Shown here: positions 14,408-14,568 of the stretch, piece after piece
Numbering within the stretch: position 1 is the first letter of the stretch
Layout of the letters: each line of letters starts with the position of its first letter
Assembly: GCF_988243305.1 (NCBI RefSeq)
Contig: NZ_OZ547136.1
Strand: one strand, 5' to 3'
DNA length: 64,000 bases
Notes under the pieces: model-generated
The model's input: only the letters and a program-made list of their open reading frames with translations
The model's database searches: none
Told to the model about the DNA's origin: nothing
Made by a program: the position numbers and the translations under genes

Positions 14408-14568
14408 GGGCAATATCTCGACCAGAGTGGTTAATAAATATTGCCGCGGCATTATACAGAGCGTAACCGATTGCATCTACCCCTTTTTGCAAAAAATGCT
14501 TGCTATCCCCGGAGGGCGGGTTACTATCGACTGAATAACCTGCTGATTTAGAATTTGATCTCGCTCAC
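14408..14568 (-). promoter_or_regulatory. guaBA promoter region (divergent from xseA)
   Basis: Intergenic region between divergent guaB and xseA; consensus -10 hexamer TATAAT on the minus strand at 14451-14456 (plus-strand attata), with AT-rich sequence further upstream. Confidence 0.5.

Follow-up and report, generated by a model that had tools for sequence, protein, structure and literature searches.

The 5′ extensions that the longest open reading frames of this Escherichia coli segment carry ahead of the accepted coding sequences are almost certainly artefacts of longest-ORF calling, and the internal, curated starts are the real ones. The analyzed window, a stretch of 64,000 nucleotides from contig NZ_OZ547136.1 (assembly GCF_988243305.1), is a segment of the E. 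coli chromosome with the gene content ppk through hcaB. In the mechanical ORF list that was used, every ORF is opened by the first ATG, GTG or TTG that follows a stop and closed by the subsequent stop, and the over-extensions arise because of this definition. The extra codons would be non-coding promoter, UTR or intergenic RNA that is by chance free of in-frame stops, whereas translation would begin at the internal codons that are already present in the curated E. coli annotation.

An in-frame ATG, GTG or TTG between the preceding stop and the accepted start was found for 14 of the 47 annotated genes. From the open upstream lengths, about 18 of 47 genes would be expected by chance under uniform codon usage. 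The frequency is thus at chance level, which makes over-extension a generic property of longest-ORF calling and not one of these genes. An earlier note on this DNA had named 11 over-extended genes together with their internal starts. All 11 were correct: each codon count equals exactly the longest ORF minus the RefSeq/K-12 CDS, and the start codons and protein lengths agree with RefSeq PGAP and the curated annotation of K-12 MG1655 (NC_000913.3). The curated lengths are 488 aa (guaB), 490 aa (der), 281 aa (sseA), 258 aa (sseB), 616 aa (hscA), 107 aa (iscA), 404 aa (iscS), 284 aa (yfhR), 426 aa (csiE), 296 aa (hcaR) and 725 aa (sinH). The list was, however, incomplete, as it omitted ppk, the gene of an AAA-family ATPase and timP, for which the longest ORF is 4 codons longer than the annotated gene. 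The claim that the long versions create false gene overlaps held for hscA/hscB only; the other long forms swallow regulatory intergenic DNA instead.

Apart from guaB, which is described separately below, the spurious extensions and the starts regarded as true are:

56..61 (+): ppk, 2 codons from GTG at 56
8211..8255 (+): AAA-family ATPase gene, 15 codons from GTG 8211; RefSeq start TTG 8256
27378..27407 (-): sinH, 10 codons from TTG; start ATG 27377
29338..29376 (-): der, 13 codons from GTG; start 29337
44316..44474 (+): sseA, 53 codons; start 44475
46590..46598 (-): sseB, 3 codons from GTG; start 46589
50450..50503 (-): hscA, 18 codons from GTG; start 50449
51401..51406 (-): iscA, 2 codons from TTG; start 51400
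53046..53069 (-): iscS, 8 codons from GTG; start 53045
55695..55721 (+): yfhR, 9 codons from ATG; start 55722
56746..56766 (+): csiE, 7 codons; start 56767
60229..60321 (-): hcaR, 31 codons from TTG; start 60228

The gene order is ppk-ppx-pdeF-yfgGHI-(island)-guaAB-xseA-(adhesin/sinI/sinH island)-yfgJ-der-bamB in the first part of the window, with the isc operon and then suhB-yfhR-csiE-hcaT-hcaR-hcaEFCB in the later part. The backbone is the same in K-12 MG1655, which lacks both the AAA ATPase island and the one with sinH, sinI and the adhesin gene. The extension regions show 0-1 mismatches each between the window and K-12 and an identical frame structure, so that data obtained for K-12 can be transferred directly. 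Over its initial 25 kb, the window shares 99.6% identity with NZ_CP062824, whereas the remainder shows 99.0-99.3% identity to other RefSeq E. coli genomes.

The island between yfgI and guaA (8211-11000), which is absent from K-12, contains, besides the AAA-family ATPase gene, a response regulator gene and a fragment of an integrase core that is annotated as a pseudogene. The ATPase is weakly similar to PtuA and to the ATPases of retron effectors, and the insertion is possibly a small island of the mobile or defence type. The adhesin island (16005-27377) is located between xseA and yfgJ, is strain-variable and missing from K-12. It encodes an adhesion-domain protein of 2680 aa, together with a SinI-family partner (24168-25145) and SinH, which is an inverse autotransporter. 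The greater part of this island falls within the initial 25 kb of the window, to which most island-carrying E. coli genomes show an identity of only 93.6%, compared to 99.6% for one record. Two small RNAs were identified by Rfam matches, namely ryfA (45510-45814, +), within which the gene of the small toxin TimP is located (timP, start 45656), and sroE (32576-32667, -) between hisS and ispG.

The following features were assigned to the guaB region:

12941..14476 (-): longest ORF of guaB in the mechanical list, 511 aa
12941..14407 (-): guaB CDS, 488 aa, with the ATG at 14407, as in RefSeq and K-12
14408..14476 (-): 23-codon "extension", which begins within the -35 hexamer and covers the core promoter down to the transcription start as well as the 5′-UTR
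14474..14479 (-): -35 hexamer TAGATG, read from the sequence and placed here by its probable position relative to +1
14451..14456 (-): -10 hexamer TATAAT, read from the sequence, with a 17-bp spacer from the -35 hexamer
14482..14503 (-): A/T-rich UP element GCAAGCATTTTTTGCAAAAAGG, about -59 to -38, the exact limits being probable ones

In the original guaB sequence paper of 1985, GuaB was reportedly given as a protein of 511 aa. Alignments of the long GuaB ORF with solved IMPDH chains from several genera begin only at its residue 23-24. The minus strand from 14503 to 14405 has the structure GCAAGCATTTTTTGCAAAAAGG-GG-TAGATG-CAATCGGTTACGCTCTG-TATAAT-GCCGCGG-CAATATTTATTAACCACTCTGGTCGAGATATTGCCC-ATG, in which the -10 hexamer is followed by the G+C-rich discriminator GCCGCGG and then by the transcription start at about 14444; the 5′-UTR has a length of ~37 nt. 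The -35 hexamer TAGATG ends in the ATG that opens the long ORF (14476-14474), and the end of TATAAT forms, with the adjacent G, a further in-frame ATG (14452-14450), which is 15 codons upstream of the true start.

The guaB promoter has been mapped previously, with a CRP site centred at -117.5, an UP element and the core elements (Husnain & Thomas 2008, PMC2885671). The published map also includes FIS sites at -11, +8 and +29, and promoter constructs with endpoints at -59, -37 and +36 (PMC2885671). In the window, a CRP-like sequence TGTGA-N6-TCAAA is centred at 14561.5. If this centre corresponds to the published position -117.5, the guaB +1 is at about 14444, and transcription probably starts at 14444 +/-2 nt, 7 nt after TATAAT. 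Both upstream ATGs precede the transcription start and are therefore absent from the guaB mRNA, so that they cannot start translation. From the CRP site to the ATG, the window is identical to K-12 except for one base far upstream, and it has the -10 hexamer TATAAT, the G+C-rich discriminator, the UP element and the FIS/PurR/DnaA region in common with the published promoter. The hexamers, the UP element and the start position are consistent with the published map (PMC2885671).

The extension thus holds the -35 and -10 hexamers, the transcription start and the 5′-UTR, and the long form does bury the guaB promoter, as had been stated in the earlier note. The RBS argument made there fails for this gene: the SD duplex energy at the true ATG is -3.0 kcal/mol, versus -7.9 kcal/mol for the AAAGGGG before the upstream ATG. 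This SD-like AAAGG(GG) is supplied by the 3′ end of the UP element. SD scoring alone picks the wrong guaB start because the hexamers of the promoter, combined with the UP element, look like a start codon preceded by an RBS. The region concerned comprises 14450-14479 (-) and the adjoining end of the UP element. The start of guaB is settled by the transcription start and by homology, not by the RBS.

In a simple sigma-70 scan of the guaB-xseA spacer, the guaB promoter was not called, owing to its poor -35 hexamer with only 3/6 matches. The only sigma-70 consensus match in this spacer is a promoter-like TCGACT-16-TAGAAT at 14527-14554 (+), which is located just upstream of the xseA ATG (14569) and is divergent from the guaB promoter.

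For the comparison of guaB across species, one genome per species was scanned with a degenerate protein pattern that did not include the start codon, resulting in 120 gammaproteobacterial loci. ATG-Leu-Arg, corresponding to the internal guaB start, was found directly upstream of the pattern in all of them (120/120). The open length upstream of this start ranged between 3 and 63 codons, and an in-frame stop was present within 11 codons (<=11) in 66 of the 120 loci. In an alignment of 23 Enterobacterales, the upstream region contains an almost invariant block, GCAATCGGTTACGCTCTGTATAATGCC(A/G)CGGCAATATTT, which includes the -10 region, and GAGATATTGCCCATG is conserved too. Between these two blocks, indels of 1, 2, 3 and ~10 nt occur. 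Invariant blocks combined with such indels are what characterizes a promoter/operator followed by a 5′-UTR, and not a coding sequence.

For hscA, iscA and iscS, position 1 of the protein profiles aligns at the internal start, that is at residue 19 of the long HscA (PRK05183), at residue 3 of the long IscA ORF and at residue 8-9 of the long IscS ORF. The long hscA ORF overlaps the 3′ end of hscB (50466..50981) by 38 nt. Both iscA starts share one SD (-6.5 vs -6.6 kcal/mol). The iscS extension is located inside the iscR-iscS RNA element, which was detected as a full-length match to Rfam RF01517 (53047-53156, -; 131.7 bits). This iscRS stability element is a known cis-regulatory RNA controlled by RyhB, and both its intergenic structure and its RyhB dependence have been published; in the window, the match fills the iscR-iscS spacer and holds the iscS extension.

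Further relatives were examined in a suhB-anchored scan of metagenomes, which yielded 68 contigs and a good coverage of iscS, csiE and sseA. Among 16 distinct upstream sequences of iscS, the ATG together with a GGAG 11 nt upstream was kept in 16/16, the upstream GTG in 0/16, and 14/16 had no upstream start-like codon at all. The short start fits both of the 2 loci available for each of hscA and iscA. The N-terminal alignments of sseB in distant relatives were too poor for use, and the scan was uninformative for yfhR (only 1 locus) and hcaR (0 loci).

The sseA extension, the longest of all, spans the yfhM-sseA divergent regulatory region. Position 1 of PRK11493 aligns at residue 54 of the long SseA, and residue 1 of the crystallised E. 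coli protein (PDB 1URH) at residue 55. An in-frame stop closer than 53 codons upstream of sseA was found in 11/11 relatives. A transcription start of sseA has been reported at -45, based on 2 reads only and listed with an oddly placed "-35 box" (PMC2760140 supplement); this position is 114 nt downstream of the ATG of the long ORF. The search for an indel that distinguishes the sseA extension of the window from that of K-12 yielded only one substituted base, which is uninformative. For sseB, profile position 1 aligns at residue 4 of the long ORF.

Position 1 of PRK11564 aligns at residue 8 of the long CsiE, and the SD energy of csiE is -7.3 kcal/mol at the internal start versus +1.3 kcal/mol upstream. 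A csiE transcription start at -22 with the -10 box GCTATTCT was described in a genome-wide study (PMC2760140 supplement). The upstream ATG (56746) is therefore within 1-2 nt of the mRNA 5′ end, which leaves no room for an SD. On the mRNA, this ATG has a near-leaderless layout (56730-56748, +), and the -10-like GCTATTCT(TA) upstream of csiE is conserved in many enterobacterial metagenome contigs. Among the relatives, the upstream ATG was kept in 1/21, and a stop closer than 7 codons was present in 11/21. The 3′ ends of the convergent genes csiE (+) and hcaT (-) share 9 nt (58039-58047), likewise in K-12.

The SD energy of yfhR is -6.7 kcal/mol at the internal ATG versus -0.9 kcal/mol upstream; an informative profile for yfhR was not obtained in the NCBIfam searches. 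The hcaR extension spans most of the hcaR-hcaE divergent control region and reduces the gap between the two genes to 42 nt, compared to 135 nt in the curated annotation. For hcaR, the SD energies are -8.7 kcal/mol (internal) and -0.3 kcal/mol (upstream), and the profiles of HcaR and of >20 other LysR-family proteins start at residue 32 of the long ORF.

The SD energies also differ between the internal and the upstream starts of sinH (-5.1 vs -0.1 kcal/mol) and der (-5.6 vs +0.1 kcal/mol). Position 1 of NF033423 aligns at residue 11 of the long SinH, and the protein beginning at 27377 has the signal-peptide-like N-terminus MLRWKRCIILTFISGAAFA. In the case of ppk, position 1 of NF003917 aligns at residue 3 of the long ORF. 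For the AAA-family ATPase, the SD energy is -5.9 kcal/mol at the RefSeq start versus +0.9 kcal/mol upstream, and on annotation and SD energy only, the short start would be favoured.

Taken over all genes, NCBIfam profile position 1 coincides with the internal start for hscA, iscA, iscS, sseA, sseB, csiE, hcaR, sinH and ppk, while for guaB and der the models start slightly further in, by a few residues of the short protein. Since PGAP and the PRK-type NCBIfam models are themselves built on earlier annotation, they are not fully independent of it in the cases of csiE, sseB, sinH and yfhR. The RBS check that had been proposed for all 11 genes gave a better SD duplex energy at the internal start in 9/11 (sinH, der, sseA, sseB, hscA, iscS, yfhR, csiE and hcaR), whereas iscA is a tie and guaB is reversed. 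The margins for sseB and hscA are small, and the SD of sseB is itself weak. Of the long starts, 9/11 have a weak or absent SD, with guaB and iscA as the exceptions. The SD score was rejected as a sole criterion, since it points to the wrong start in guaB and discriminates poorly in sseB and hscA.

N-terminal proteomics, which the earlier note had named as a further check, supports the internal starts. In E. coli K-12 N-terminomics data from 2026, initiation-derived peptides were found at the annotated, internal starts of Der, HscA, IscA, IscS and SseB, several of them with Ribo-RET support (PMC13245402 supplement). The Der peptide at the annotated start has Ribo-RET support, and the SseB peptide is SETKNELEDLLEK... 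(SETKNELEDLL..., residues 2-27, Met removed). For der, iscA, iscS and sseB, the tables give annotated starts only (PMC13245402). HscA peptides begin at the annotated start, and a second HscA N-terminus that is one residue longer (MMALLQ...) was ascribed to a non-cognate AAC codon before the ATG (50449-50452, -; PMC13245402). The tables contain no entry for guaB, sseA, yfhR, csiE and hcaR, and no proteomic N-terminus for SinH (PMC13245402). Proteomic evidence of initiation at the upstream codons had been named as the observation that would speak against internal starts, and no long start is among the detected N-termini (PMC13245402).

That the long ORFs are the true genes, truncated by the curated annotation (with a GuaB of 511 aa), is hardly conceivable. 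This reading could draw on the frames, which are open and begin with ATG, GTG or TTG, and on the SD-like AAAGGGG ahead of the upstream guaB ATG. The K-12 protein records of der, sseA, sseB, yfhR and csiE are in versions.2 to.4, which implies that these starts were once annotated differently. The long reading is contradicted by the upstream guaB ATG, which is part of the -35 hexamer and precedes the mapped start of transcription, by homologues, profiles and structures, all of which are without the extensions, and by the stops or indels that break the extensions in other species; across species, the extensions of guaB, iscS, sseA and csiE are lost. The proteomic N-termini match the short forms as well (PMC13245402). 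For guaB, der, hscA, iscA, iscS, sseA and sseB, long genes were refuted by the combination of promoter, homology, structures and proteomics.

It is also very unlikely, if somewhat less so, that upstream in-frame codons are used alongside the annotated starts and give rise to minor, N-terminally extended proteoforms. The best candidate would be a CsiE extended by 7 aa through leaderless-type initiation at AUG 56746, given that the transcription start at -22 puts this codon so close to the mRNA 5′ end. SseA with +2 or +4 aa (ATGs 2 and 4 codons upstream) and HcaR with +1 aa (GTG) are other candidates, and closely spaced in-frame starts are indeed present in sseA (-2, -4), hcaR (-1) and csiE (-5). 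In N-terminomics, 17 upstream initiation sites were described genome-wide in E. coli, including the one-residue HscA extension at AAC, but none of the long starts of the 11 genes is among the detected N-termini (PMC13245402). By Ribo-RET, only 6 upstream in-frame sites were found in BW25113, and the text of that study names none of these genes (Meydan et al. 2019). In addition, the upstream codons are without an SD and without conservation in relatives, and the codons of the guaB and of the full sseA extension lie outside the transcript. The proteoforms described by Ribo-RET (Meydan et al. 2019) and TRAINSPOTTER (2026) resemble the cases in the window in having an in-frame start-like codon upstream with no intervening stop. 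They differ from them in that the upstream codons analyzed here have no reported initiation signal or peptide and no conservation.

Initiation at the internal, curated starts is thus the preferred reading for the over-extended genes. The upstream codons of yfhR, hcaR and sinH are probably unused too; here the support is thinner and comes from annotation, SD energies, profiles (hcaR and sinH) and the signal-peptide-like N-terminus of SinH.

The starts, the guaB promoter and the iscRS element are all already known, being part of the curated E. coli annotation or described previously. If the longest ORFs were used, 14 proteins of the window would each gain between 2 and 53 spurious residues, which is a matter of annotation hygiene only. 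The long forms would hide the guaB promoter, the iscR-iscS RNA element and the divergent promoters of sseA and hcaR in seemingly coding sequence.
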